Virus record (IMG/VR): IMGVR_UViG_2651869748_000011
Source of the DNA: a virus
Lineage: Duplodnaviria; Heunggongvirae; Uroviricota; Caudoviricetes
Length of the DNA: 15,748 nucleotides
Reading direction: 5' to 3' (one strand)
A program made the position numbers and the translations under genes. Below are positions 1-15,748 of this stretch, piece by piece. Each line of letters starts with the position of its first letter. Within the stretch, counting starts at the first letter, position 1. Under the pieces are notes generated by a model. It saw only the letters and a program-made list of their open reading frames with translations. It was not told the origin of the DNA and did not search any database.

Positions 1-246
1 TCAGTATTTCCCCGATACCTTGTGTGCAAATTGCATCAGATAGTTGATAGCCTTTTGTTTGTCGTTCTGGCTGAGTTCGTGCTTACCACAGAATACAGCC
101 ATTCCGAATCCGGCTTGTGATTGCGCCATCCCCATAGCAGCCATCACATCAGTACCGGAAAGAGAGTCAGAAGCCGTAGCCCGTGGTGAGTCGCTCATCA
201 TCGGGCTTTTTGGCGAATGAAATTTAGCTACGCTTTCGAGTCTCAT
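1..246 (-). CDS. Q: Late-gene antiterminator Q (lambda type), N-terminal 81 codons only; the ORF closes with TGA at window positions 1-3
   Basis: Translation [31 protein letters not shown]...KVSGKY matches the lambda Q N-terminus as recalled; ATG at 246-244 overlaps the ninI stop. Lambda Q is about 207 aa, so this copy appears truncated. Confidence 0.85.
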
Positions 247-908
247 GCGCCTTCTCCCTGTACCTGAATCAATGTGAGGTTTCCGCAGAACACTGCGCCG
301 GTATCGATATACATCTGGTTGGCAAACTTGAGTGGTTTCACTGCTGGCGTATGACCAAAGATGAACGTGTCCGCACCTTTGATTTCTTTCACGATCCCGT
401 CTTGTGAGTTGCTGATTCGTTCGCGGTTCCAGATTACCTGCTGATGATCAACTGGTTTTCCAAACTCGTATTCGTCACAAGGATAATCGGCGTGGCAGAT
501 GACATATTTTTTATCTTTGCTCACCAGTTCGATGATTAACGGAAGTTCATCTGCTTTATGGGCAAGAGCTTTAGCCAGAATTTCTTTGTCGTAATCGAGA
601 TTAAAGAACCATCCACCGCCATTAAGCAGCCAGTGATTAACGTTTCCACGCTCTGATAAGCCATCAATCATCATTTGCTCATGGTTTCCACGTACAGCTC
701 TGAACCAGGGGAATGTGATTAATTCCAGGCATTCGACGTTCTCTGCACCACGATCAACCAAATCGCCCACCGAGATAAGCAGGTCTTTTTTGTTGTCGAA
801 TCCAATCGTATCCAGTTTGTTCATCAGGTTCGTGTAGCATCCGTGCAGATCGCCAACTACCCAAATATTTCGGTATTTGCTGCCATCAATTTTTTCGTAA
901 TAGCGCAT
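243..908 (-). CDS. ninI: Ser/Thr protein phosphatase (lambda PPase, NinI), 221 aa
   Basis: Starts [25 protein letters not shown]; metallophosphatase motifs GDLHG, GDLVDRG, GNHE; near-identical to recalled lambda PPase. Start set at the internal ATG (906-908) rather than the upstream end of the ORF. Confidence 0.93.
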
Positions 909-1092
909 CTCTTTCACTCCATCCGCGATGAACCATAAGAACATCGTTGACGATGGCGTGCATTTTCCCGTCTTTATCATCAACGTATTTTCTGACCGTA
1001 CCGCGACTACATTTCAGTCTGCGTGCTACTTCTGTCTGGTTTCCGTATGCTTCAACGAGCATGTCTGGAATGGTTTTTACTGAGAACGTCAT
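886..1092 (-). CDS. ninH: NinH (lambda orf68)
   Basis: 68-aa [39 protein letters not shown]...; position between ninG and ninI follows lambda nin order; HTH-like segment. Confidence 0.85.
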
Positions 1093-1700
1093 GCGGCCTC
1101 ACTTCTGCTATTTCGCAGGTCTTTGAGTTTCTGTTGGTACTCTGCCTTGATCGCCTTGCACTCTTCGACAGTCCAGCGATGGCGGCTATGGTTTGATTCG
1201 ATTTCGTCTACTGCTTCCTGCCCGATGCGGTTAATCAGTTCGACGCGATACGGAACGAGATTTCCGCTTTTGTGCTGGTTGCACACCACGCATTGCTTGT
1301 GAATATTGCGTTCATCAAATCGGAGTTGAGGTGCCGCAGCAGTTGTCCGGTAATGTCCGGCATCCCACTGAGCAGACGTGAGCGTTCCGCACGAGATACA
1401 TGGTAAGTCGCGGTCTCTTTCTCTGATGAAGGCGTTTACAGCTTGTTGGGCTTGTTTAATCCAGTAACTGCGGGGCTTTAAGGCGAGTTTTCGAATCTTC
1501 AGTTTATCTTTCTGTTTCTGCTCCTCTCGTCGTCGTTTCTTCTCTGCTGCTTTTTCCGCTTTTTCGCGTTCTTTGCTTCGTCGTTCCAGTGCTATCTTTG
1601 TTCCACACTCTGGAGAGCACCACCACTGATTAGCGAATGCAGGGTGAAACCATTCCCGACATTCTTCGTTTTTACATCGTCTTCGCGCTTGTTTAGCCAT
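1089..1700 (-). CDS. ninG: NinG / Rap recombination protein (lambda orf204)
   Basis: 203 aa, [33 protein letters not shown]...; Cys-rich Zn-binding N-terminus; matches lambda NinG as recalled; start overlaps upstream stop. Confidence 0.9.
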
Positions 1701-1969
1701 TATGGTTCGCTCCAGTAATTCTCAATTGCAGCAGCCATTCTCTGCATCCACTCTGCCAGCTTTAACGCGGCTTCTCTTTCAGAACCACATTTAGGGAAAT
1801 CCTTCATTTCCATGCTGGCCTTATATGTTCTGAATGCCAGGTCTCCGGTAATAACCAGCTCCTGATCAAGCACCGAGCGTTTATTCCGGTGTTGAACGTA
1901 ATAGACAGATTCAGTCCGCATTTCTTCTCTGTCTTTTTTGAAGGAAATAAGCTCAGAGAAATCACTCAT
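1700..1969 (-). CDS. Hypothetical 89-aa protein between ninF and ninG (not present in lambda at this position)
   Basis: ATG at 1969-1967 overlaps the ninF stop (ATGAGTGA); stop overlaps the ninG ATG, so it is translationally coupled within the nin operon. No family recognised. Confidence 0.6.
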
Positions 1970-2138
1970 CGTCTTCTTCCTCGTACATTGAGCTATTCGG
2001 ATCGCTCATCAGTTCTGCGCAGCAGTGCTCACACACATGAACTTCCAGCACATGCAGCTTCTGACCGCAGTTAGCGCACGTTAAAGCCCGCTCGACGCTT
2101 TCTTTCTGGTATTGAAGAGATTGGGATGGGCTAAGCAT
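1962..2138 (-). CDS. ninF: NinF (58 aa)
   Basis: Not in the ORF track (under 60 aa). Reverse-complement of 1962-2138 translates to [58 protein letters not shown], matching lambda NinF as recalled; CxxC...CxxC Zn-ribbon. Confidence 0.85.
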   Translation of the reverse strand: MLSPSQSLQYQKESVERALTCANCGQKLHVLEVHVCEHCCAELMSDPNSSMYEEEDDE

Positions 2139-2490
2139 TATTGGCGTCCTGCATCATGAGAAAGACAATCATGGCGGCGCGGAGGGAATTTTCATGTATA
2201 GCTAGCTTAGATTTACAGTCGGCCACACCACGTGCACCCCACTCGTCTTCATCGAGATTGATGATGCTAATCCTGTACTTCTCAATAATCGGCCATGAGG
2301 CGCTAGGATCATTGCAGTAGTCAGGCAAAGGGTTTAATGGCTCAAAAGTTGTATCAGCATTTCCGTAATACCATTTGTTGGTGTTATTCCCTGATGTTTC
2401 CGGTTTACATGCCCAAAGGCCTTTAAAAATTATGTCTCCTACCATTCTGTTAATTTCAAAATCACTTAACTGTGAATAATCCATTGTCAT
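2131..2490 (-). CDS. Hypothetical nin-region protein, possibly NinX-like (119 aa), lying between ninE and ninF
   Basis: ORF 2131-2526 begins at a GTG inside ninE; the more likely start is the ATG at 2490-2488, which overlaps the ninE TGA (ATGA). The ninE-X-ninF position matches P22/HK97-type nin regions. Family assignment is tentative. Confidence 0.55.
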
Positions 2491-2663
2491 TTCCTCGCAC
2501 GATGTCTTAGCCACCGGATATCCCACAGGTGAGCCGTGTAATTGAAGGTTTTTACGTCAGATTCTTTTGGGATTGGCTTGCGTTTATTTCTGGAGCGTTT
2601 CGTTGGAAGGTATTTGCAGTTTTCGCAGATGATGTCGGTGATACTTCGTCGCTGTCGTCTCAT
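2487..2663 (-). CDS. ninE: NinE (58 aa)
   Basis: [58 protein letters not shown] matches lambda NinE as recalled; ATG at 2663 overlaps the methyltransferase stop. Confidence 0.88.
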
Positions 2664-3187
2664 GCCGCCCTCCTGACGCCCTGCCCGATCGCCATCAATG
2701 CCGCTTTGGATACGGTAGTAAACATCCGTCGAGGACTGATGAACGGTCGCCAAATCAGCAGCATGGAACCTTTGCTGTTTCCCTTCTTCTCCAGCCCTGT
2801 CGATGGTTCGATAAAATTAATCCGTCCATCAGTGATAATACGAACTTCGTCAACACTCTCCAGAGCCTTGCTGAACCATCCGACAGACATATCCTCTGGC
2901 ACAAGCATCACTACCGTCTGTCGCTGTTGTATGCACTGCTCAGCGGCTTTTTCCACCCACGGCCTGATATTGCTGTACGGTGGGTTATTCCAGATTGCAC
3001 CGTGGCTTACCCACTCAGAATTGAGCGCGTCGTCGGCCTCAGTTAACCAGTGAGCGCACAGAGCATTTTTGTCGCTCGCTGCCGAATCCAGCCAGAATCC
3101 AAACTCAATATCCAGTGCATCAAAAAGCCAAAGCGGCGTTTGCCAGCAGTCCTTGTCGTGTGCTGGCGTATTTGATTTGATAGTCAT
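2660..3187 (-). CDS. Phage DNA N6-adenine methyltransferase (Dam-like orphan MTase) occupying the ninC/ninD slot
   Basis: [31 protein letters not shown]...; NPPY catalytic motif (AIWNNPPYS) typical of N6-adenine MTases; ATG at 3187 overlaps the ninB stop (ATGA). Confidence 0.8.
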
Positions 3188-3624
3188 GCAGCCCGATCTC
3201 CCCATCTCGCTTTCCACTCCAGAGCCAGTCTCGCTTCGTCTGACCACTTAACGCCACGCTCTGTACCGAATGCCTGTATAAGCTCTAATAGCTCCGCAAA
3301 TTCGCCTACACGCATCCTGCTGGTTGACTGGCCTATTACCACAAAGCCATTCCCGGCAAGGTTAGGAACAACATCCTGCTGCTTTAATGCTGCGGTAAAC
3401 ACACACTTCCAGCTTTCTGCATCCAGCCAGCGACCATGCCATTCAACCTGACGAGAGACGTCACCTAAGCAGGCCCATAGCTTCCTATTTTGGTCTAAGC
3501 TGCGGTTGCGTTCCTGAATGGTTACTACGATTGGTTTGGTTGGGTCTGGAAGGATTTGCTGTACTGCGTGAATAGCGTTTTGCTGATGTGCTGGAGATCG
3601 AATTTCAAAGGTTAGTTTTTTCAT
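3184..3624 (-). CDS. ninB: NinB recombination protein (lambda orf146)
   Basis: From MKKLTFEIRSPAHQQNAIHAVQQILPDPTKPIVVTIQERNRSLDQNRKLWACLGDV... 146 aa matching lambda NinB as recalled; strong SD (GGAGAGGGAAG) upstream of the ATG at 3624. Confidence 0.92.
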   Translation of the reverse strand: MKKLTFEIRSPAHQQNAIHAVQQILPDPTKPIVVTIQERNRSLDQNRKLWACLGDVSRQVEWHGRWLDAESWKCVFTAALKQQDVVPNLAGNGFVVIGQSTSRMRVGEFAELLELIQAFGTERGVKWSDEARLALEWKARWGDRAA

Positions 3625-3639
3625 GACTTCCCTCTCCCC

Positions 3640-3672
3640 CAAATAAAAAGGCCTGCGATTACCAGCAGGCCT
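3640..3672 (-). terminator. tR2-like rho-independent terminator between ren and ninB
   Basis: On the minus strand: AGGCCTGC-(8-nt loop)-GCAGGCCT followed by TTTTTATTTG; 8-bp GC-rich stem plus U-tract; matches the lambda tR2 position. Confidence 0.8.
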
Positions 3673-3697
3673 GTTATTAGCTCAGTAATGTAGATGG

Positions 3698-3988
3698 TCA
3701 TCTTTTAACTCCATATACCGCCAATACCCGTTTCATCGCGGCACTCTGGCGACACTCCTTAAAAATCAGGTTCGTGCTCATCTTTCCTTCCCGTTCTTCC
3801 CTGGTAGCAAACCGGTAATACACCGTTCGCCAGACCTTACCTTCGATAACCAGAAGACCTGCCCGTGCCATTTTAGCCGCGGCCTGATTTATGCTGGTTA
3901 CTGTTGCGCCTGTTAGCGCGGCAACGTCCGGCGCACAGAAGCTATTATGCGTCCCCAGGTAATGAATAATTGCCTCTTTGCCCGTCAT
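3698..3988 (-). CDS. ren: Ren (Rex-exclusion escape protein), 96 aa
   Basis: MTGKEAIIHYLGTHNSFCAPDVAALTGATVTSINQAAAKMARAGLLVIEGKVWRTVYY... matches lambda Ren; ATG overlaps the P stop. Confidence 0.92.
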   Translation of the reverse strand: MTGKEAIIHYLGTHNSFCAPDVAALTGATVTSINQAAAKMARAGLLVIEGKVWRTVYYRFATREEREGKMSTNLIFKECRQSAAMKRVLAVYGVKR

Positions 3989-4686
3989 ACACTTGCTCCT
4001 TTCAGTCCGAACTTAGCTTTAATTTCTGCGATCTTCGCCAGAGCCTGTGCACGATTTAGAGGTCTACCGCCCATAACAGGAAGTTGTTTTACTGGTTCAG
4101 GTATCGTCTCACCACGGTTAATTCGCGCTGTCATACAGGTCAGTTCATCGGCAGCCTTGCGCCGTAATTCCGCATCAGTAAGCGCATTGGCCCGCATGTT
4201 CTGATACAGGTTGGTAACCAGCCAGTAGTGCGCGTTTGATTTCCACGGATAAGACTCCGCATCCGGATACAGGCCTCGCTTCCGGCAATACTCGTAAACC
4301 ATATCAACCAGCTCGCTGACGTTTGGCAGTCCGGCGATAACGGATGCTTCTTCCCGGCACCATGCAACAAACTGCCCGGGTGATGGCAGAAATGGTCGAT
4401 TCTGCCGACGGGCTACGCGCATTCCTGCGTTAACCTGTTCCATCGTGGTGATCCCGTTTTCCCGAAAAGCCAGAACCCACTGGCGACGGATTTCGTTCAC
4501 TTCGTTCTGGTCACGGTTAGCCAGGCTCGCCGGGAAAGTTGCCAGTAACTGGCTGAACACACCGTTGATGATCTGCGCTACCTGCTGTACCTGCGGCTTT
4601 TCGTCGTACTGTTCCGGCATGTTGTTGGCGATCCGACGCATCTGCTCACGGTCAAAGTTAACCATCTGTGCGGCGATGTTTTTCAT
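3985..4686 (-). CDS. P: Replication protein P (DnaB helicase loader), 233 aa
   Basis: MKNIAAQMVNFDREQMRRIANNMPEQYDEKPQVQQVAQIINGVFSQLLATF... matches lambda P; start overlaps the O stop. Confidence 0.95.
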   Translation of the reverse strand: MKNIAAQMVNFDREQMRRIANNMPEQYDEKPQVQQVAQIINGVFSQLLATFPASLANRDQNEVNEIRRQWVLAFRENGITTMEQVNAGMRVARRQNRPFLPSPGQFVAWCREEASVIAGLPNVSELVDMVYEYCRKRGLYPDAESYPWKSNAHYWLVTNLYQNMRANALTDAELRRKAADELTCMTARINRGETIPEPVKQLPVMGGRPLNRAQALAKIAEIKAKFGLKGASV

Positions 4687-5582
4687 AGATCCACCCCGTA
4701 AATCCAGTCTGTGTTTGTCAGGTCGAGTTTTGGTTTGCTGGCTGTCACGACTGCCTGTTGCTTGTTACGGTTGATTTCGAGCTGGGTCCACTTGTCGCGG
4801 AGTTTGGCCGGACTAAGCACGTTACCGGACCAGAAGTTGTCCTGGCATGCCCAGCGGAACAGCACGCACATGTCGCGGTGGTTACGTCCGTCACGTTCAC
4901 GCATCAGGCGGATATCGTTAGCCCACCCTGCAAAATTCGGTTTTCTGGCTGATGGCGCGATGGTCTTCACCATGTCAAACATCCACTCTGCGGCGGTCAG
5001 GTCTTCTGCTGTCCCCCACTTGCTGCCGCTCTGAATTGCAGCATCCGGTTTCACCACAGAAAGATCGTTTTCTGGCTGGTCAGAGGATTCGCCAGAATTC
5101 TCTGACGAATAATCTTTTCTTTTTTCTTTTGTAATAGTGTCTTTTGTGTCCCTCTGTTTTGAGGGATAGCAATCCCCCAATTTGAGGGATGTTTTATCCC
5201 TCGTTTTAGGGGATTTTCCCTCGTTTTGAGGGATACACCATTCTGAGATGTTTTTATTTGGTCCAAACATGCCGCCTTGCTGCTTGATAATATTCATTCT
5301 GACGAGTTCTAACTTGGCTTCATTGCACCGTTTGACGGGTAACTTTGTAATCTCGCTAAGTTGAGAATCGGTGACTCTGTCCATTGGTTTATTCCACCCA
5401 TAGGTTTTACGCAGAATGGCAAGCAGCACTTTAAACTGTCGCTTGGTCAGATCTGCGCCCGAATAAGCCTCAAGCAGCATATTTGATAGTCTGGCGTAAC
5501 CATCATCGAGATCTGCCACATTACGCTCCTGTCCGGCAAAGTTACCTCTGCCGAAGTTGAGTATTTTTGCTGTATTTGTCAT
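4683..5582 (-). CDS. O: Replication initiator O, 299 aa
   Basis: MTNTAKILNFGRGNFAGQERNVADLDDGYARLSNMLLEAYSGADLTKRQFKVLLAILRKTYGWNKPMD... matches lambda O; the origin iterons lie inside the coding sequence. Confidence 0.95.
   Translation of the reverse strand: MTNTAKILNFGRGNFAGQERNVADLDDGYARLSNMLLEAYSGADLTKRQFKVLLAILRKTYGWNKPMDRVTDSQLSEITKLPVKRCNEAKLELVRMNIIKQQGGMFGPNKNISEWCIPQNEGKSPKTRDKTSLKLGDCYPSKQRDTKDTITKEKRKDYSSENSGESSDQPENDLSVVKPDAAIQSGSKWGTAEDLTAAEWMFDMVKTIAPSARKPNFAGWANDIRLMRERDGRNHRDMCVLFRWACQDNFWSGNVLSPAKLRDKWTQLEINRNKQQAVVTASKPKLDLTNTDWIYGVDL
5100..5233. other. ori-lambda: four iterons plus adjacent AT-rich region, inside O
   Basis: Four ~18-bp inverted-symmetry repeats of the type TCCCTCnnTTTGAGGGA at about 5149-5166, 5173-5189, 5197-5213 and 5217-5233; AT-rich tract at about 5100-5148 (cttttcttttttcttttgtaatagtg). 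Confidence 0.9.
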
Positions 5583-5592
5583 AATGACTCCT

Positions 5593-5669
5593 GTTGATAG
5601 ATCCAGTAATGACCTCAGAACTCCATCTGGATTTGTTCAGAACGCTCGGTTGCCGCCGGGCGTTTTTTA
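5593..5669 (+). ncRNA. oop: oop antisense RNA (~77 nt), overlapping the cII 3' end
   Basis: Plus-strand terminator CGCUCGG-UUGCCG-CCGGGCG followed by UUUUUU at 5643-5668, antisense to the cII 3' end. The 5' end is inferred from the lambda arrangement (start about 10 nt ahead of the O ATG), not seen directly. Confidence 0.65.
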
Positions 5670-5908
5670 TTGGTGAGAATCGCAGCAACTTGTCGCGCCA
5701 ATCGAGCCATGTCGTCGTCAACGACCCCCCATTCAAGAACAGCAAGCAGCATTGAGAACTTTGGAATCCAGTCCCTCTTCCACCTGCTGATCTGCGACTT
5801 ATCAACGCCCACAGCTTCCGCTGTCTTCTCAGTTCCAAGCATTGCGATTTTGTTAAGCAACGCACTCTCGATTCGTAGAGCCTCGTTGCGTTTGTTTGCA
5901 CGAACCAT
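5615..5908 (-). CDS. cII: Transcriptional activator cII, 97 aa
   Basis: MVRANKRNEALRIESALLNKIAMLGTEKTAEAVGVDKSQISRWKRDWIPKFSMLLAVLEWGVVDDDMARLARQVAAILTNKKRPAATERSEQIQMEF matches lambda cII; start taken at the ATG at 5908. Confidence 0.95.
   Translation of the reverse strand: MVRANKRNEALRIESALLNKIAMLGTEKTAEAVGVDKSQISRWKRDWIPKFSMLLAVLEWGVVDDDMARLARQVAAILTNKKRPAATERSEQIQMEF
5886..5899 (+). promoter_or_regulatory. cII-binding site of PRE (TTGC-N6-TTGC), directing plus-strand transcription toward cI
   Basis: ttgcgtttgtttgc on the plus strand just inside the cII 5' end, as in the lambda PRE -35 region. Confidence 0.7.
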
Positions 5909-5987
5909 ATGTAAGTATTTCCTTAGATAACAATTGATTGAATGTATGCAAATAAATGCATACACCATAGGTGTGGTTTAATTTGAT

Positions 5988-6019
5988 GCCCTTTTTCAGG
6001 GCTGGGATGTGTAAGAGCG
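5988..6019 (-). promoter_or_regulatory. nutR (boxA CGCTCTTAC, boxB GCCCTGAAAAAGGGC), with the tR1 region downstream toward cII
   Basis: Minus-strand sequence cgctcttacacatcccagccctgaaaaagggcatcaaa; boxB hairpin at 5988-6002, boxA at 6011-6019; palindrome TATGCAAATAAATGCATA at about 5944-5961 in the tR1 region. Confidence 0.85.
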
Positions 6020-6027
6020 GGAATATC

Positions 6028-7383
<1,356 letters not shown>

Positions 7384-7433
7384 TCCCCACCTCAATCTCG
7401 ATAACCAAAAAACAAACTATTTTCCGTTTAAAA

Positions 7434-7502
7434 ACAATGGAGTTTGTTTTTCATGCCCCTTTTTTACAATATTTCTTGTTTACAACATACAATCTTTCTT
7501 GT
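7434..7502. promoter_or_regulatory. 434-type left operator region (OL) and PL promoter upstream of nutL and N
   Basis: 14-bp ACAA-N6-TTGT sites: ACAATATTTCTTGT (7466-7479), ACAATCTTTCTTGT (7489-7502), and a weaker candidate ACAATGGAGTTTGT (7434-7447). Confidence 0.65.
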
Positions 7503-7548
7503 AATTTTAAGCCATCAGCAGGACGCACTGACCACCATTGAAGGTGAT

Positions 7549-7578
7549 GCTCTTAAAAATTAAGCCCTGAAGAAGGGC
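7549..7578 (+). promoter_or_regulatory. nutL (boxA GCTCTTAA, boxB GCCCTGAAGAAGGGC)
   Basis: Plus-strand sequence gctcttaaaaattaagccctgaagaagggcagcattcaaagcag matches lambda nutL as recalled. Confidence 0.88.
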
Positions 7579-7736
7579 AGCATTCAAAGCAGAAGGCTTT
7601 GGGGTGTGTGATACGAAACGAAGCATTGGCCGGAAGTGCGAATCCGGATTAGCTGCAAATGAGCCAATCGTGGGGTGTTTTCGTTCAGGACTACGACTCA
7701 CACACACCACCAAAGCTAACTGACAAGAGAATCCAG

Positions 7737-8060
7737 ATGGATGCACAAACACGCCGCCGCGAACGTCGCGCAGAGAAACAGGCTCAATGGAAAGTAGCAA
7801 ATCCCCTGTTGGTTGGGGTAAGCGCAAAACCAGTTAACCGCCCTATTCTCTCGCTGAATCGCAAACCGAAATCACGAGTAGAAAGCGCACTGAATCCGAT
7901 AGACCTTACAGTGCTGGCTGAATACCACGAACAGATTGAAAGCAACCTGCAACGTATTGAGCGCAAGAATCAGCGCACATGGTACAGCAAGCCTGGCGAA
8001 CGCGGCATAACATGCAGTGGACGCCAGAAAATTAAGGGAAAATCGATTCCTCTTACCTAG
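7737..8060 (+). CDS. N: Antiterminator N, lambda type (107 aa)
   Basis: MDAQTRRRERRAEKQAQWKVANPLLVGVSAKPVNRPILSLNRKPKSRVESALNPIDLTVLAEYH... arginine-rich motif; matches lambda N; the longer 7659 start in the ORF track is disfavoured. Confidence 0.93.
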   Translation: MDAQTRRRERRAEKQAQWKVANPLLVGVSAKPVNRPILSLNRKPKSRVESALNPIDLTVLAEYHEQIESNLQRIERKNQRTWYSKPGERGITCSGRQKIKGKSIPLT

Positions 8061-8615
8061 TTACTTAGATATTGGCCTTGGCTTTATCTCAATATTATAT
8101 GGATCATAGCTGGCAACTAATTCAGTCCAGTAAATATCCTCAATAGGGAATAATATATGCTTCCCGTTCCATCGGGAAAAAGTTTTGTTCAACACACCAA
8201 GCTCAATCAACTCACTAATGTATGGGAATTGTTTTGATGTAACCACATACTTCCTGCCTTCATTAAGGGCTGCGCACAAAACCATAGATTGCTCTTCTGT
8301 AAGGTTTTGAATTACCGATCGCACTTTATCGTTTTGCATCTTAATGCGTTTTCTTAGCTTAAATCGCTTATATTTGGCGCTGGCAATAGCTGATAATCGA
8401 TGCACATTAATTGCTAGCGAAAATGCAAGAGCAAAGACGAAAACATGCCACACATGAGGAATACCGATTCTCTCATTAACATATTCAGGCCAGTTATCTG
8501 GGCTTAAAAGCAGAAGTCCAACCCAGATAACGATCATATACATGGTTCTCTCCAGAGGTTCATTACTGAACACTCGTCCGAGAATAACGAGTGGATCCAT
8601 TTCTATACTCATCAA
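8061..8615 (-). CDS. sieB: Superinfection exclusion protein SieB (membrane protein), 184 aa
   Basis: Abuts N tail-to-tail as in lambda; hydrophobic segments MYMIVIWVGLLLLSP and HVWHVFVFALAFSLAI; matches lambda SieB as recalled. Confidence 0.82.
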   Translation of the reverse strand: MMSIEMDPLVILGRVFSNEPLERTMYMIVIWVGLLLLSPDNWPEYVNERIGIPHVWHVFVFALAFSLAINVHRLSAIASAKYKRFKLRKRIKMQNDKVRSVIQNLTEEQSMVLCAALNEGRKYVVTSKQFPYISELIELGVLNKTFSRWNGKHILFPIEDIYWTELVASYDPYNIEIKPRPISK

Positions 8616-8989: not shown

Positions 8990-9109
8990 CAGAACAACAA
9001 AGCTGCCTGATAGTGGCCTTTATTTTTGGCATAAATAACAGAATAAACACTGCACTGAACCGCCCCGGGAATCCTGGAGACTAAACTCCCTGAGAAAGAG
9101 GTAAACAGG

Positions 9110-9436
9110 ATGACTAAAAATACTCGTTTTTCCCCTGAAGTCCGTCAACGGGCAGCCCGTATGGTTCTGGAAAGTCAGGGCGAATATGACTCACAATGGG
9201 CGACAATTTGTTCCATTGCTCCAAAGATTGGCTGTACGCCGGAGACTCTGCGTGTCTGGGTTCGCCAGCATGAGCGGGATACCGGGGGCGGTGATGGAGG
9301 GCTCACCACCGCTGAACGTCAGCGTCTGAAAGAGCTGGAGCGTGAAAATCGTGAACTGCGCCGCAGTAACGATATCCTTCGCCAGGCTTCCGCTTATTTT
9401 GCGAAGGCGGAGTTCGACCGCCTCTGGAAAAAATAA
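9110..9436 (+). CDS. IS3-family transposase OrfA (HTH/leucine-zipper part)
   Basis: [60 protein letters not shown]...; A6 run at the orfA/orfB overlap is the likely programmed -1 frameshift window. Confidence 0.9.
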
Positions 9437-10323
9437 TGCCGCTGCTGGATAAGCTGCGTGAGCAGTACGGGGTCGGACCGCTATGCAGCGAACTGCATAT
9501 TGCCCCGTCAACGTATTACCACTGTCAGCAACAGCGACATCATCCGGATAAACGCAGTGCCCGTGCGCAGCGCGATGACTGGCTGAAGAAAGAGATACAG
9601 CGCGTATACGATGAAAATCACAAGGTATACGGTGTGCGTAAAGTCTGGCGTCAGTTGTTACGGGAAGGAATCAGAGTGGCCAGATGCACTGTGGCACGTC
9701 TCATGGCGGTTATGGGACTTGCCGGTGTTCTCCGGGGTAAAAAGGTCCGCACTACCGTCAGCCGGAAAGCCGTTGCCGCATGCGACCGCGTAAACCGTCA
9801 GTTCGTGGCAGAACGTCCAGACCAGTTGTGGGTGGCTGATTTTACCTGGGTAAGCACATGGCAGGGCTTCGTTTATGTGGCGTTCATCATTGATGTGTTC
9901 GCCGGATACATCGTGGGATGGCAGGTCTCATCATCCATGGAAACAACATTCGTGCTGGATGCACTGGAGCAGGCGTTGTGGGCCCGTCGGCCGTCCGGCA
10001 CAATCCATCACAGTGATAAAGGTTCTCAGTATGTATCGCTGGCCTACACGCAGCGGCTTAAGGAAGCCGGATTACTGGCATCAACAGGGAGTACTGGCGA
10101 CTCGTATGACAACGCGATGGCGGAGAGCATCAATGGTCTTTACAAAGCGGAGGTAATACACCGTAAGAGCTGGAAAAACCGTGCAGAAGTGGAACTGGCC
10201 ACACTCACGTGGGTGGACTGGTATAACAATCGACGATTGCTGGAAAGGCTGGGCCATACTCCCCCGGCAGAAGCAGAAAAAGCTTATTATGCTTCCATCG
10301 GAAACGATGATCTGGCAGCCTGA
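9436..10323 (+). CDS. IS3-family transposase OrfB (DDE integrase-like catalytic domain)
   Basis: [15 protein letters not shown]...WVADFTWVSTWQGFVYVAFIIDVFAGYIVGW...HHSDKGSQYVS...DNAMAESINGLYKAEV; rve-type DDE domain. Confidence 0.9.
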   Translation: MPLLDKLREQYGVGPLCSELHIAPSTYYHCQQQRHHPDKRSARAQRDDWLKKEIQRVYDENHKVYGVRKVWRQLLREGIRVARCTVARLMAVMGLAGVLRGKKVRTTVSRKAVAACDRVNRQFVAERPDQLWVADFTWVSTWQGFVYVAFIIDVFAGYIVGWQVSSSMETTFVLDALEQALWARRPSGTIHHSDKGSQYVSLAYTQRLKEAGLLASTGSTGDSYDNAMAESINGLYKAEVIHRKSWKNRAEVELATLTWVDWYNNRRLLERLGHTPPAEAEKAYYASIGNDDLAA

Positions 10324-10365
10324 GTTCACAGATAAAACACTCTCCAGGAAACCCGGGGCGGTTCA

Positions 10366-10554
10366 CTGCGTGTGTGGGTTCGTCAGCATGAGCGGGATAC
10401 CGGGAGTGGTGATGGTGGACTCACCACCGCTGAACGTCAGCGTCTGAAAGAGCTGGAACGTGAAAATCGTGAACTGCGCCGCAGTAACGATATCCTTCGC
10501 CAGGCTTCCGCTTATTTTGCGAAGGCGGAGTTCGACCGCCTCTGGAAAAAATAA
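10366..10554 (+). pseudogene. 5'-truncated orfA remnant of the second IS element
   Basis: Encodes ...[60 protein letters not shown] with no native start codon or left inverted repeat. Confidence 0.8.
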
Positions 10555-11441
10555 TGCCGCTGCTGGATAAGCTGCGTGAGCAGTACGGGGTCGGACCGGT
10601 ATGCAGTGAACTGCATATTGCCCCGTCAACGTATTACCACTGTCAGCAACAGCGACATCATCCTGATAAACGCAGTGCCCGTGCTCAGCGCGATGACTGG
10701 CTGAAGAGAGAGATACAGCGCGTATACGATGAAAATCACAAGGTATACGGTGTGCGTAAAGTCTGGCGCCAGTTGTTACGCGAAGGTATCAGGGTGGCCA
10801 GATGTACAGTGGCGCGCCTCATGGCGGTTATGGGACTTGCCGGTGTTCTCCGGGGTAAAAAGGTCCGTACTACCGTCAGCCGGAAAGCCGTTTCCGCAGG
10901 CGACCGCGTAAACCGTCAGTTCGTGGCAGAACGTCCTGACCAGCTGTGGGTGGCTGATTTTACTTACGTCAGCACATGGCAGGGCTTCGTCTATGTGGCG
11001 TTCATCATTGATGTGTTTGCCGGATGTATCGTGGGGTGGCGAGTCTCATCGTCTATGGAAACGACATTCGTGCTGGATGCACTGGAGCAGGCGTTGTGGG
11101 CCCGTCGGCCGTCCGGCACAGTCCATCACAGTGATAAAGGTTCTCAGTATGTATCACTGGCCTATACGGAGCGACTAAAAGAAGCAAAACTGCTGGCATC
11201 AACAGGGAGTACAGGTGACTCGTATGACAACGCGATGGCGGAGAGCATCAATGGTCTTTACAAAGCGGAGGTAATACACCGTAAGAGCTGGAAAAACCGT
11301 GCAGAAGTGGAACTGGCCACACTCACGTGGGTGGACTGGTATAACAATCGACGATTGCTGGGAAGGCTGGGTCATATCCCTCCGGCAGAAGCAGAAAAAG
11401 CTTATTATGCTTCCATCAGAAACGATGATCTGGCAGCCTGA
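10554..11441 (+). CDS. IS3-family transposase OrfB of the truncated element (probably not expressible as OrfAB)
   Basis: 295-aa ORF about 95% identical in protein to copy-1 OrfB (e.g. FAGCIVGWRVSSS versus FAGYIVGWQVSSS). Confidence 0.8.
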   Translation: MPLLDKLREQYGVGPVCSELHIAPSTYYHCQQQRHHPDKRSARAQRDDWLKREIQRVYDENHKVYGVRKVWRQLLREGIRVARCTVARLMAVMGLAGVLRGKKVRTTVSRKAVSAGDRVNRQFVAERPDQLWVADFTYVSTWQGFVYVAFIIDVFAGCIVGWRVSSSMETTFVLDALEQALWARRPSGTVHHSDKGSQYVSLAYTERLKEAKLLASTGSTGDSYDNAMAESINGLYKAEVIHRKSWKNRAEVELATLTWVDWYNNRRLLGRLGHIPPAEAEKAYYASIRNDDLAA

Positions 11442-11713
11442 GTTCACAGATAAAACACTCTCCAGGAAAACCGGGGCGGTTCAAATAACATTGTGCGTAC
11501 TCCTCTTGAGAAGGTGAGAACTATCGGTATCGCAGACACAGTTATGCCTACGGGTCTCCCCGCATCGGTCATTCTCAAAAGGTTTAAAATAGGGTTAGGT
11601 TTGATCACTCTGAACGATCAATCGAAGACATTACGATTGGAACAAACGATCAATAGGTATGTGGTTATTTGCTAAGCTGCGACAACCTTTACAAAGACAC
11701 TCAGGAATGTTTC

Positions 11714-12022
11714 ATGCCCAAATTAGCTATTAGCTTATTACTTTACTTGGCCTGCTTTTATGCAGTTGGATATGGCGCTGGATATATAACAGGTGGAATA
11801 ACTTGGCACACACTGTATATGCTTGAACGTATAATTACCGTAGCCCTACTTGCATTCATTCCAGTGTTTATCTTTGCGGCTTTATTAAATGCATCCAAAA
11901 GACAAGGAATAATAAAATCACTTTCTGTCTCAGCGATTAATTTAATCCCTTCGGCTATCGCATTACTTATAGGATTTACTGACGCAGTGACCAGAAAGTT
12001 TCTTACTTATTTTCTCGGTTAA
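11714..12022 (+). CDS. Small hydrophobic membrane protein (102 aa, about 3 predicted TM helices), AT-rich gene
   Basis: MPKLAISLLLYLACFYAVGYGAGYITGG...ERIITVALLAFIPVFIFAALL...INLIPSAIALLIGF; SD AGGAA 9 nt upstream; its 3' end overlaps the convergent 63-aa gene by about 20 bp. Confidence 0.55.
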   Translation: MPKLAISLLLYLACFYAVGYGAGYITGGITWHTLYMLERIITVALLAFIPVFIFAALLNASKRQGIIKSLSVSAINLIPSAIALLIGFTDAVTRKFLTYFLG

Positions 12023-12194
12023 CTGACATATTGCGAATGACCAACTGTTCTATTAGCTCATTACGAGAATAAAATGGTCGGTCATTCGTAGCCGCTTTAT
12101 CCACGCCAAGCATCGACAATAGAATAGAAGTGGGAAGCCCCCGGTAACGCAGGGTCAAACGGCCTTCGGGAGTGCGTGGGTCAATCATAGCCAT
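12003..12194 (-). CDS. Hypothetical 63-aa protein, translationally linked to the upstream 161-aa gene
   Basis: ATG at 12194 sits 2 nt after the upstream TAA and is preceded by GGAG; MAMIDPRTPEGRLTLRYRGLPTSILLSMLGVDKAATNDRPFYSRNELIEQLVIRNMSVNRENK. Confidence 0.5.
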   Translation of the reverse strand: MAMIDPRTPEGRLTLRYRGLPTSILLSMLGVDKAATNDRPFYSRNELIEQLVIRNMSVNRENK

Positions 12195-12196
12195 TG

Positions 12197-12682
12197 TTAA
12201 AGTCTCCACTCACAGCGACCGACACGTAGCTCCTCAAACTCCTCTTTCGAGACGAGTTGTCCAGCCCTGTAGTGCGATACCGTGTGCTTCTTAATGAATG
12301 CCTTAGAGTCCGGCGTGATGTCGTCCGAAGATGCTACAGCGGCCTGTACGCTGGCACTGGAGGTCATAGACACAAAGGCATCCGCTACAGCTATTCCGTA
12401 CTCAAAGTCCAGCCACTCGCCAAACTTGACGGCGGACGTGGGGTCAGCAAGCCATGACGTACCGAGGCGACCCATATCAACTTTCTTTATGCGGCGGTTT
12501 TTCTGCCCCATAAGATAGCGCCCGACTTTGGTCTGAGCGAAACGCTTAACCATTGTCTTCTCGGTGTCTTCTACCTTACCAATCTGAATACCGACCCGGC
12601 GAATTTCATCCAATCGGAACAATCCGTCTTGACTGGTGAGGTCCTGACCGAAGATATGGATAGTGTATTCTTGTTGAGACAT
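12197..12682 (-). CDS. Hypothetical 161-aa protein, possibly KilA-N-like DNA-binding domain
   Basis: MSQQEYTIHIFGQDLTSQDGLFRLDEIRRVGI...GRLGTSWLADPTSAVKFGEWLD resembles the KilA-N conserved core (G-T-[WY]-x-H/A...W-L motif); strong SD AAAAGGAG upstream of the ATG at 12682. Assignment is from memory. Confidence 0.6.
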   Translation of the reverse strand: MSQQEYTIHIFGQDLTSQDGLFRLDEIRRVGIQIGKVEDTEKTMVKRFAQTKVGRYLMGQKNRRIKKVDMGRLGTSWLADPTSAVKFGEWLDFEYGIAVADAFVSMTSSASVQAAVASSDDITPDSKAFIKKHTVSHYRAGQLVSKEEFEELRVGRCEWRL

Positions 12683-12905
12683 ATCGTTGTACTCCTTTTA
12701 TCTGCATCCTGAAGCCGCATCCTGCCGCCTACTCAAAGCCCCCAACGATAGGGAGACGGCAGGCAACAAGACGCAGATAGAATGACTTTGAGATTTGATG
12801 ATTAGTGTCGGCGGTGGCACTTATTTAAAACGAAAGGACAACAGCATATTTCCGCATGACTTGACGCATCAAGGCCAGAGGCAGAAATAAGTATTTGCTC
12901 GGTGT

Positions 12906-12929
12906 CGTTCCTAAGGTGATAGTTTAGTC
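12906..12929 (-). promoter_or_regulatory. Second, weaker phage-RNAP promoter-like copy sharing the same -18 to -5 block
   Basis: Minus strand GACTAAACTATCACCTTAGGAACG; a 14-nt block (GACTAAACTATCAC) is identical to the upstream copy, but the initiation region is degenerate. Confidence 0.3.
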
Positions 12930-13447
12930 AAACAGTAATGAACTTCGGAGAACTTGACTCGAAAGTGTTCAGGACTTCCAGTGAGACCCGAAGTATGGAG
13001 ATCATATTATAGCGACCATAGTTTACTTCGGACTGACAGGACTGGAGGCTGGACTTAAAGTTCTTCTTATTGGAATTGTGATAACACAATCCATAACAAG
13101 ATAAACTCATGGTCTCCTCAAGCCTGCTGGTCAAGACTCAAAGCTCCAACCTCAGACACCACCACTGGTCTAACCTCTTTGAGTTTCCGCCTGTCCACAA
13201 ATGGATGGCAGACCTCAGCAATGATGTCTTGGTTCTTCAGTTATCCGCGCAGCGATTATCACAGAGCCAACTTAAAGTCGGATGTGGTCTTCTGCTCCCC
13301 GCCTGTCAAAAGGGAAGATAACCTACGTTAAAAGAGAATGGTCTCAGGCCAAGGTGATTTAACACTAGGCGTCTGCGGATGGTTTCCAATCGGTCCGCTA
13401 CCGGAAGCCTGAGACTATATGAATGTGTGGGTCGGTGACTTAGGGCC

Positions 13448-13470
13448 TCTCCCTATAGTGATAGTTTAGT
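13448..13470 (-). promoter_or_regulatory. T7-family single-subunit RNA polymerase promoter-like sequence (candidate), predicted start G at 13453
   Basis: Minus strand ACTAAACTATCACTATAGGGAGA; positions -8 to +6 (TCACTATAGGGAGA) are identical to the T7 consensus, while -17 to -9 differ (a different specificity region); located 18 bp downstream of the 219-aa gene stop. Confidence 0.45.
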
Positions 13471-13488
13471 CCCCCTTCCCCGTCAGCC

Positions 13489-14148
13489 CTACTCGTTAGC
13501 GGCCTGTTGCTGTTCCCTCGCTTTCCGGTCCCGGTCTTCAATGCCCTTAAGCGCCCGTTCCGGCATACTGTTAAACATGGCTTCGACTTCTTTCGGTCGA
13601 GTAATCTGCTCAGTGACAATAATGTTCAGCAGCTTAAAGAGACCATGCGCCAACTGAGGGTCGTCATCAATGTTAATTTCACCCGGATGTACCGCCTGAT
13701 TGCCAACAATACGACAGATGTCAGCAGCTCGCTGGACCAGTGGAGACAGCCCTTTAGCTACAAGGGACTTAATGTCCGTGTCGATATGCTTCCCCGGCTC
13801 ACCGAGATGGACCATCAGCTTTTGAAGACTTAAGCGCAGGAGTGCGGCAGCGCCCTTAGGTGACAGATTAATGATGCTTCTGGCTTCCATGTAGTCGGAC
13901 TTACAGTCTTCTGGCATGTCAGGATTAGGCAGCTCAACACTACCAGCCGCAGGAATCATCATATTGCCTTTATACCAATAAGCATTTTCATAGCAATGTT
14001 GACAATATGATAAGTGGAAATCAGTTTCCATATAAGTAGAATGAGGCGCAACTCCCACCATTGACCGCCAGCTTTGCTTGGAATAAACACCACAGTGCGG
14101 GCAATTAAAAGCTTTACCATCAAACACCGCCGGATAATACTCAGCCAT
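13489..14148 (-). CDS. 219-aa protein with N-terminal Zn-ribbon (CPHCG...CQHC) and a C-terminal region possibly DUF4145/HEPN-like; translationally coupled to the integrase
   Basis: [25 protein letters not shown]...[13 protein letters not shown]...; C-terminal motif [17 protein letters not shown]; its ATG (14148-14146) overlaps the integrase TGA (ATGGCTGA). Family call is tentative. Confidence 0.6.
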
Positions 14149-15748
14149 TTACTCCAGTCTCCTTATAAACATCAGCCATCACATTAACCAATCTATCTAC
14201 CTCGACTTCTTTCGCATACCTGTCATAGGTAATCGACCCTGAGCTATGACCCATAATCGCCTGAGCATACGCTAACCCGACCCCATGTTGTTTTAACTGG
14301 GTCGCCACTGTATGTCTGAATGAGTGGAACGCTAAGCCGCTACGGTCAGCGAGGACTTTAGGTAGCAACGTTCTGTTAAACCATTTGCTCACCTGCTCAC
14401 CGTAGCCGTTCTTCATCAGCTTGAGGCCATCGAATACCATAGCATTATCACCCTTAGCCTTTCTACGGTCTTCCACGAGTGACATAAAGTCAGCCAATAA
14501 AAAACCATAAGCACCATCTACCAACGGGACACAGCGGTCACTATGGGCGTTCTTGATGCTCTTACCCGGTAGGCTGCTATCGTCTTCGTTGATATGGATA
14601 TACACGGTCCCGGCCTCAGTGGTCCTGACGTCTTTGACCTGAAGCTGAGCCACCTCATTAAGTCTTGCTCCAGTGATTGCCGCCAGAGCAGTGACGTAAT
14701 AGTGGTAGGGCTTACCTGAGGTCTTCTGAGAGTACGCTTTAGCGGCGACCAGTAGTTGCCCTACCTGCTCAGGACTGAACGCATCACGAGCGTCGGAGGC
14801 TTTACGCTGCGGGACTTTCAGCTCAAGACCTTCGGTCAGGTTCTTAGCTATCAAGTCGTTGCGTACCGCCCACTTAAACACAGCAGCCATCTTGATAAGA
14901 TATTTATTGTTGATGGTAACGACATCCAAACAGTCAGTCTTAGACTCCCGGTTCAGCAGGTCAGACAGCGGCATAGACTTAAAGCGTTGCTTGCGGTTCT
15001 TCGGTATCTGCTGGAGGACTTCACGGACCCTGAGCATATCTGAACGGGTCGCCTTGCTGACATCCTGAATATCCAGATAGTCGAATATCTCGATTAACGT
15101 AGAGTGAGACGCTCGGTTCTCGCTTAGGGTCGCTGGCTTCCAGTTCTGAGCGTTCTCCTGCTCGTACTGCTCAATGAGAGACGCGAGGGTCAGTGCTTTA
15201 GGCTCGGGGACTTCAGGCTCTGCCAATACAGATAGGGAGACGGACGGTCTTAGACTGCCAGTCTCAGGCTCAAGGTAAGACAACAGGCCAGAGGTATCGC
15301 CTTTGAGTCTATCCTGACACGCTTTAAGCACACCGATAACGTCATTGATATAGCGATGCTGGTCTACAGTCAGATGCTCAGTCGCTACAGCTTCCCGAAG
15401 GTTGGACTTGATGTCATCGTACTGGTCAACGTAGAGCTGGTAGGACTCAGGGTCGTTCAGGTCATCGCGGCTGACACTAAGTTCCCACTCGACAATGGTC
15501 TTCAGGTGTTCCCGTAGCTCCTCATAAGAGGCGTTAGGGTTGTCTGCGTGGATTGCTTTAAGTGCTGACTTGATGTGCCGTGAGTGAGCCATAGCGGTAC
15601 GTCTATCCTTGGTCCGTAAAGATACTGACGCTAGTTTATAACGGTTGTGAGAAGGAAGCGAAGCGGTCAGGCGACTAGTGGTCTTCATCCTAAGACGGAT
15701 GTAAAAGACACCGTTACGCTGATAAAGGTAGGTTCTTGAATTGAGCAT
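14141..15748 (-). CDS. Tyrosine site-specific recombinase / integrase (535 aa), unrelated to lambda Int
   Basis: C-terminal catalytic residues: R in [12 protein letters not shown]-x-x-R in [10 protein letters not shown] in [11 protein letters not shown]; N-terminus [20 protein letters not shown] typical of large-N-terminus integrases; its ATG is the last 3 bases of the window. Confidence 0.85.

Follow-up and report, generated by a model that had tools for sequence, protein, structure and literature searches.

What is encoded by a gene whose start overlaps the stop of a tyrosine integrase, and what does its product do for the element that carries it? The gene in question occupies positions 13489 to 14148, on the minus strand, of a 15,748-nucleotide (nt) stretch of DNA (IMG/VR virus record IMGVR_UViG_2651869748_000011), which as a whole is called here the window. 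The initial annotation, made from the letters alone, described a zinc-ribbon protein with a possible HEPN/DUF4145-like motif and left two roles open, that of a cargo effector and that of a novel recombination directionality factor (RDF). According to our analysis the gene is, with high confidence, a variant of RAZR (PD-T7-4), a single-gene abortive-infection defence carried as cargo beside the integrase of an island inserted at the tRNA gene glyU. RAZR is already known and mechanistically solved, and the window gene is an ordinary member of this family, one more allele of a published defence protein which PADLOC already names. What interest remains attaches to the sensor, which has diverged, and to the position that RAZR takes in front of the promoters in T7-promoter islands, on which neither of the two RAZR papers remarks.

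Assignment of the gene to the RAZR family

The gene and the protein parts which carry the assignment are as follows.

13489..14148 (-): RAZR/PD-T7-4 gene, open reading frame (ORF) with translation, 219 aa, ATG to TAG
13954..14148 (-): N-terminal zinc-finger domain, residues 1-65, CxxC pairs at 14092-14103 and 13993-14004
13660..13887 (-): DUF4145 (divergent HEPN) RNase domain, residues 88-163, Pfam PF13643, E=3.4e-13
13687-13713 (-): catalytic motif R146-x3-N150-x3-H154, at the position of the published RAZR-Ec pair

Against the PADLOC profile of PD-T7-4 (PDLC04109) the protein scores E=1.7e-99, with residues 1-209 falling on profile positions 1-209 of 211. The search of solved structures returned one target, PDB 9Y9C (a 'DUF4145 domain-containing protein' with 24 chains, E=2.5e-112), to which the window protein aligns gap-free, 1-219 on 1-219, with 74.9% identity; this identity to RAZR-Ec is comparable to the 78% found between the two tested proteins, RAZR-Ec and RAZR-Kv. 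In the Pfam profile search, which the initial annotation had proposed as a check, DUF4145 was the sole match and no unrelated family appeared. The product of the 100% identical RefSeq locus, WP_024219477.1, is likewise named 'DUF4145 domain-containing protein'.

Most of what had been read from the letters was correct. The N-terminal pair of CxxC motifs consists of C16/C19 and C49/C52, and the DUF4145/HEPN-like Arg/Asn/His motif reads C145-R146-I-V-G-N150-Q-A-V-H154, where R and H are the catalytic R146/H154 of RAZR (PMC13017515). This motif had been placed at the C-terminus; it is in fact central (146-154 of 219). In 120 homologues of 65-97% identity the residues C16, C19, C49, C52, R146, N150 and H154 are all invariant, and therefore neither the cysteine pairs nor the R146/N150/H154 motif can be regarded as chance resemblance. 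The R-x7-H spacing (146 to 154) falls outside Rx4-6H, so the protein is not a HEPN protein in the canonical sense.

PD-T7-4 was first published by Vassallo et al. in 2022, with the remark that it 'often overlaps an integrase gene' (PMC9519451), and it was renamed RAZR, for ring-activated zinc-finger RNase, by Zhang et al. (Nature 2026, PMC13017515), from whose work PDB 9Y9C comes. The N-terminal Cys4 zinc finger of RAZR is the infection sensor and the determinant of specificity, and the C-terminal DUF4145 domain is a divergent HEPN RNase, in which R146A or H154A abolishes the defence by RAZR-Ec (PMC13017515). The inactive protein forms linear oligomers and wraps phage protein rings of ~170 Å as a 24-mer; the rings which trigger it are the portal of T7, T3 and SECphi18 and the Erf-like Gp77 of SECphi27 (PMC13017515). 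Once assembled, it cuts single-stranded RNA non-specifically, stops translation and aborts the infection, and throughout the family a conserved HEPN domain is combined with a fast-evolving sensor (PMC13017515). The placement of DUF4145 in the HEPN superfamily and the listing of its zinc-ribbon fusions are due to Anantharaman et al. (2013, PMC3710099).

Compared with RAZR-Ec of E. coli UMB1727, the window protein has the same length of 219 aa, aligns with it without a gap and shares with it the Cys4 zinc ribbon, the R146/H154 pair, the linker length and the overlap with the integrase. RAZR-Kv of Klebsiella variicola, which differs from RAZR-Ec mainly in the zinc finger, is active and defends against T5, T7, SECphi18 and Lust, a phage range unlike that of RAZR-Ec; domain swaps move specificity together with the zinc finger (PMC13017515). 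The likeness to the DUF4145 branch of HEPN (PMC3710099) extends to the alpha-helical character, the conserved Arg and His, the zinc-ribbon fusion and the association with defence or abortive infection, but many DUF4145 proteins carry a fused restriction or helicase module, while the window protein is small and stands alone. As in the integrase-adjacent defence hotspots of P4, P2 and other elements (PMC9519451), a single defence gene sits at a fixed site and turns over faster than the backbone; those hotspots, however, swap unrelated systems, while the slot described here always holds RAZR and the variation is found inside the gene.

The window protein is thus a family member with intact catalytic residues and zinc ligands, conserved architecture and conserved genomic context, and the activity of this particular allele may be inferred from these features. 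Because it is homologous to the characterised RAZR, we propose the same mechanism for it. The protein would be made constitutively at a low level, either from the integrase transcript via the overlapping stop and start or by means of a weak promoter situated within the 3' end of the integrase, and would wait as inactive linear oligomers. A phage ring of ~170 Å, such as a portal dodecamer or an Erf-like 24-mer, would be encircled by the N-terminal Cys4 zinc fingers, and this binding would curve the oligomer into a 24-mer and align the HEPN dimers, creating active sites from R146 and H154. The active enzyme would then cut single-stranded RNA (mRNA, tRNA, rRNA) non-specifically, translation would halt and the infected cell would release no phage. 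As a cargo effector, the role which the initial annotation had offered first, the gene therefore fits well: a defence protein of the RAZR family does stand beside the integrase, and abortive infection is ascribed to it by homology.

Divergence of the sensor domain

Several observations weigh against this assignment or limit what may be read into it. The residues R29, Y31, R35, T41 and E43 of RAZR-Ec were shown to contact the trigger Gp77 (PMC13017515), and all of them are replaced in the window protein (R29S, Y31V, R35P, T41E, E43D), for which reason sensing of T7, T3 or SECphi27 cannot be assumed. The oligomer-interface pair D179/D180 of RAZR-Ec, where D179K or D180K inactivates the protein (PMC13017515), is T179/E180 in the window. 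Of the other residues involved in oligomerisation, V21 and R184 are kept in the window protein, R184 being invariant or nearly so among the 120 homologues, and the linker 66-79 has the same length with no indel, AGS replacing AGN at 68-70. An AlphaFold2 (AF2) model built from a 24-sequence alignment reached a mean predicted local distance difference test score (pLDDT) of 57; residues 1-60 were modelled as beta strands with pLDDT 77-91, and the HEPN half stayed below 50, and because of this low confidence the HEPN fold assignment rests on the sequence identity to the solved protein. Finally, no sigma-70-like promoter with at least 9/12 matches was found by consensus scan upstream of RAZR on the minus strand; a relaxed scan gave 8/12 matches only, located ~290-320 nt upstream of the gene.

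The mismatch at the contact residues points to a different trigger range and not to non-membership, since it is the zinc finger that sets specificity (PMC13017515). Identity to RAZR-Ec is 83% in the HEPN domain and 41% between the CxxC pairs. In the alignment of 120 homologues the trigger-contact positions are the most variable of the family, mean column entropy being 2.42 bits for residues 20-48 versus 0.30 for residues 88-170, and the pairwise ratio of nonsynonymous to synonymous substitution rates (dN/dS) is 0.54-0.66 in the zinc finger versus 0.07-0.12 in the HEPN domain. Judged from these values, the HEPN domain is under strong purifying selection and the sensor is fast-evolving. Because the sensor loop is 41% identical and five contacts are replaced, the window allele likely has a trigger and phage range which differs from that of RAZR-Ec. 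Its contacts are replaced and its catalytic core is kept, so that nature provides in it a specificity variant with which the reading of different phage rings by the zinc finger could be tested.

The replaced interface pair could also be taken as a sign that the window allele is a decaying or inactive copy in a remnant island, and the island is indeed cut at 11481-11486 by IS3-family copies. We consider this very unlikely. T179/E180 are present in ~40% of homologues (T179 in 50/120, E180 in 53/120) and represent a common natural variant. The ORF is of full length with all invariant residues intact, and its HEPN domain bears the mark of strong purifying selection. It recurs unchanged in two complete E. 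coli genomes, and P0001, a cluster representative named as Salmonella, shares 97% identity with it.

The RAZR-Ec-type locus L039 carries P0026, 97% identical to RAZR-Ec, in the same island backbone. Between the window and L039 the RAZR gene shows 79.5-85.5% nucleotide identity and a synonymous substitution rate (dS) >1, while the flanks are 93.5-95% (integrase), 96% (downstream intergenic region) and 99% (ORF161, the first gene further downstream) identical. RAZR behaves as a swapped or diversifying cassette in a conserved island backbone.

Overlap with the integrase and expression

The junction of the two genes is made up of the following elements.

14141..15748 (-): tyrosine integrase, 535 aa, Pfam Phage_integrase E=8.2e-19, PHROG 1 integrase E=2.9e-44
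14141..14148 (-): overlap of the integrase stop (TGA) and the RAZR start (ATG), ATGGCTGA, 8 nt, read from the sequence
14159-14164 (-): AAGGAG Shine-Dalgarno, inside the integrase 3' end

The overlap had been noticed at the outset and is exact: in its own frame the integrase ends GTA AAT GGC TGA, and RAZR opens ATG GCT GAG. An integrase-stop/RAZR-start overlap together with a TATAAGGAGA box is present in 11/15 loci of other genera, a set which includes Enterobacter, Citrobacter, Rouxiella, Buttiauxella, Klebsiella, Edaphovirga, Morganella and Shimwellia; the remaining 4/15 (L004, L006, L013, L016) have no complete integrase gene upstream. Because the overlap is conserved across genera, co-transcription and translational coupling of the integrase and RAZR are plausible, and to this extent the earlier statement that the two are expressed together stands. 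Coupling is not obligatory for the family, however: in a vector without a promoter, 200 bp of its own upstream sequence suffice for RAZR-Kv to work (PMC13017515).

The same position, a gene overlapping the integrase across genera, is what speaks for the second role proposed initially, in which the protein would be the RDF of the overlapping integrase; moreover, the island yielded no gene recognisable as Xis or AlpA. We nevertheless rejected this candidate and regard it as extremely improbable. The family function is known to be that of an anti-phage RNase (PMC13017515), and Pfam and NCBIfam returned no Xis, AlpA, HTH-17 or other DNA-binding domain in the protein, DUF4145 being its only Pfam domain. 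With 219 aa it is about twice the size of a typical RDF, and four homologues (in the loci named above) have no complete integrase gene upstream. Identities of the integrase and of RAZR are decoupled as well (97%/75% in L003, 96%/65% in L014, 91%/94% in L002), which is not as expected for a co-evolving pair of integrase and RDF. The initial remark that this is not a typical excisionase was thus right, as no Xis-type domain is present and the family is one of anti-phage RNases.

Predicted phage-type promoters behind RAZR

Directly behind the gene two sites were found which resemble the promoters of T7-like phages.

13448..13470 (-): predicted phage-type promoter 1, ACTAAACTATCACTATAGGGAGA (-17..+6), +1 predicted at 13453, 35.5 bits on the Kayfunavirus matrix
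12906..12928 (-): predicted phage-type promoter 2, ACTAAACTATCACCTTAGGAACG, +1 predicted at 12911, 30.8 bits on the Kayfunavirus matrix

The Kayfunavirus matrix was derived from 11 sites in the coliphage vB_EcoP_F (NC_047808.1), all of them intergenic and on the coding strand, with own scores of 30.8-37.3 bits; a T7 matrix was built from 17 annotated T7 promoters and a K11 matrix from 13 annotated K11 promoters. Promoter 1 begins 18 nt past the RAZR stop and is directed away from RAZR, and promoter 2 follows 542 nt further downstream; the two are copies of a 20-nt direct repeat downstream of RAZR (D2). Promoter 1 matches, letter for letter, the site which precedes the major head gene of the Kayfunavirus vB_EcoP_F, and a variant of promoter 2, CACCTTAGG, is also found in this phage, at position 17571. 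Copies of the 19-mer AACTATCACTATAGGGAGA were found in 21 viral contigs, all but one of them ~40 kb long, with several on the same strand in each, and two of these 21 are vB_EcoP_F and a Pectobacterium T7-like phage. On the Kayfunavirus matrix, nothing else in the window or in the 43-kb locus L001 scores 14 bits or more, whichever strand is read.

The arrangement is a general one. In 11/11 integrase-linked loci of other genera (L002, L003, L005, L007-L012, L014, L015) and in 4/4 E. coli loci (among them L038, L039 and the window) a promoter core on the RAZR strand begins between -5 and +113 nt relative to the stop of that gene, and a second promoter cluster is often located 490-600 nt further on; no phage-type promoters were found in the 4 RAZR loci without a complete integrase gene. 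Comparable phage-type sites were also absent elsewhere in ~250 kb scanned on both strands. The physical association of RAZR and the promoters is tight and far beyond chance.

Promoter specificity regions vary from locus to locus. The K. pneumoniae ATCC 13883 locus (L009) has an exact T7 class III consensus, with 40.4 bits on the T7 matrix, and also two K11-type sites, for which the K11 matrix gives 36.9 and 40.2 bits; T7-type sites of 31-35.5 bits occur in the loci of Rouxiella, Edaphovirga and Morganella; and the RAZR-Ec-type locus L039 has an extra proximal promoter with a ACCCTCACTATAGG core besides a Kayfunavirus-type site. Each host genus appears to have promoter sets that match its own phages, Kayfunavirus-type in E. 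coli and K11- and T7-type in Klebsiella. Whether these promoters fire, and what their firing would achieve, is a matter of inference. The island holds no ORF of RNA polymerase size.

Chen & Schneider (Nucleic Acids Res 2006, 34:1133) reportedly described 'tandem T7-like promoter' islands in enterobacteria. An ORF between the integrase and the promoters of these islands is said to have had no known function at that time. We take the RAZR islands to be the same elements, as they presumably agree in the integrase, in 2-4 tandem promoters and in having no polymerase gene, and, on the same assumption, in being a few kb long, lying beside a tRNA gene and having terminal direct repeats and few small downstream genes. 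RAZR would then presumably be the formerly anonymous gene which heads them. Neither RAZR paper, of Vassallo 2022 (PMC9519451) or of Zhang 2026 (PMC13017515), mentions T7-like promoters, satellites or Chen & Schneider 2006.

Leader and genes downstream of the promoters

Promoter 2 is followed by a structured leader and two small ORFs.

12683..12800 (-): conserved leader with a long hairpin, directly upstream of ORF161; minimum free energy -43.9 kcal/mol, z=-3.7
12197..12682 (-): ORF161, first gene behind the promoters
12003-12209 (-): 68-aa ORF after ORF161

None of 200 shuffled sequences folds as well as the leader hairpin (0/200), and a block of ~100 nt of this leader is 75-83% conserved in L002, L003, L007, L009, L012, L014, L015 and L038, even amid unalignable flanks. 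One might speculate that RNase III-type processing takes place at the hairpin, as it does in T7 mRNAs. No significant structure was predicted for the 341 nt of leader behind promoter 1 (z=-0.9). Between genera, the ~520 nt separating the promoters (12930-13447) show 82-96% conservation and exceed RAZR itself in this respect; no conserved ORF, no Rfam match and no significant predicted structure was detected in this stretch. A 61-68-aa ORF between the promoters (12928-13134), preceded by a strong GAGGAG Shine-Dalgarno, was considered as a further gene and rejected; since the ORF is preserved in neither L002 nor L003, it is probably not coding.

Neither ORF161 nor the 68-aa ORF has a Pfam or PHROG match. 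ORF161 belongs to a narrow family of only 41 homologues, all from Enterobacterales, and tblastn against the phage collection gave no match; its position is kept in L002, L007, L015 and L039. The other island genes likewise match no Pfam or PHROG family, with the exception of a Rha/Ant-like gene in L038 (E. coli Ecol_AZ155), where this regulator is the first gene behind the promoters and an IS100 insertion.

This arrangement suggests a broader reading, in which RAZR is one arm of an island device. The polymerase of the invading phage would switch on, or help to replicate, ORF161, ORF63/68, ORF163 and ORF317/328 only during infection, and the downstream genes would act as further defence effectors or as satellite functions. 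We put this forward as a tentative possibility. In its favour are the promoters behind RAZR in the 11 integrase-linked loci of other genera and the 4 E. coli loci and none in the four without a complete integrase, the scores, which lie inside the own ranges of the phages at sites with no counterpart in the remainder of the scanned DNA, and the conserved hairpin leader which precedes the first downstream gene; besides, T7 and T3, against which RAZR-Ec defends, belong to the same phage group (PMC13017515). On the other hand, RAZR lies upstream of the promoters and so is not driven by them, and RAZR-Ec and RAZR-Kv protect when cloned alone (PMC13017515), because of which RAZR needs no other part of the island. 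The downstream genes lack any recognisable function, and there are RAZR homologues without such promoters, both in the loci lacking a complete integrase and in Streptococcus prophages.

Put as a hypothesis on the whole element, the integrase, RAZR and the array of T7-group promoters may form one conserved module, with RAZR as a constitutive, integrase-coupled portal-ring sentinel and the rest transcribed by the polymerase of the invader; we find this conceivable, though somewhat doubtful. Such a module could be a two-arm anti-T7 element or a T7-parasitic one. The tandem phi1.1A/B promoters of T7 lie at its primary origin of replication, and by analogy the island is perhaps replicated in the same way. 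If the promoters do fire during infection, these islands would represent immunity or parasitism wired to the transcription machinery of the invader itself, and the experiments with cloned RAZR genes would have sampled only part of the system.

The island and its mobile-element setting

Positions 11481-15748 of the window are 100% identical to E. coli NZ_CP062871.1, where the integrase starts 135 nt from the tRNA-Gly gene glyU and the island adjoins the ETT2 type III secretion remnant; a tRNA-Gly context was found also in NZ_CP019005.1. In two genomes the 17-nt direct repeat TGGAGCGGGCGAAGGGA, which corresponds to the tRNA-Gly 3' end, is present at both ends of the island.

L001, 15512-15528 and 23201-23217: TGGAGCGGGCGAAGGGA repeats, island ends
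L038, 3693-3709 and 12027-12043: TGGAGCGGGCGAAGGGA repeats, island ends

Without insertion sequence (IS) elements the RAZR island is ~6.4 kb long, and the module is present in 398/5426 complete E. coli genomes. The window holds the integrase-proximal 4.3 kb of it, the far end being cut at 11481-11486 by the following two IS3-family copies.

9053-10366: complete IS3-family element (IS629/IS1203-like)
10366-11486: second IS3-family copy, minus its first ~195 nt, abutting the first

These two copies (9053-11486) join a lambdoid prophage to the glyU island. The prophage/IS/island arrangement of the window was not found in complete E. coli genomes; either the strain underwent an IS-mediated rearrangement of its own or the join arose in assembly. 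Because no complete genome shows the join, the lambdoid prophage is not the native context of the RAZR gene. Megablast of the 3-kb integrase-RAZR region against phage genomes gave no match; the module is not part of a known phage. Rfam, searched with 11400-15748 at E up to 1, returned no match either.

The homologues of RAZR make up 1474 clusters. More distant ones, 33-45% identical at ~90% coverage, are found in temperate Streptococcus phages and in the 11.5-kb Vibrio element PQ189324.1 (records H56-H63); in the Javan phages the homologue lies inside the first 4-6 kb of the record. Because of these Streptococcus phage and Vibrio homologues, the family can be described as mobile-element cargo well beyond Enterobacterales.

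Positions 1-8615 of the window are the early region of the lambdoid prophage and are unrelated to the RAZR finding.

1-8615: prophage genes, namely Ser/Thr phosphatase, NinG-like, methyltransferase, NinB-like, P, O, cII and cro
6350-6982: cI-like gene, LexA family
7659-8060: N-like gene
8061-8615: SieB superinfection exclusion gene, Pfam SieB E=1.2e-29

In L039 positions 1-5159, immediately upstream of the RAZR island integrase, belong to another element, which carries a Phage_cap_E capsid gene and an integrase of 406 aa; this looks like a tandem integration beside the island.

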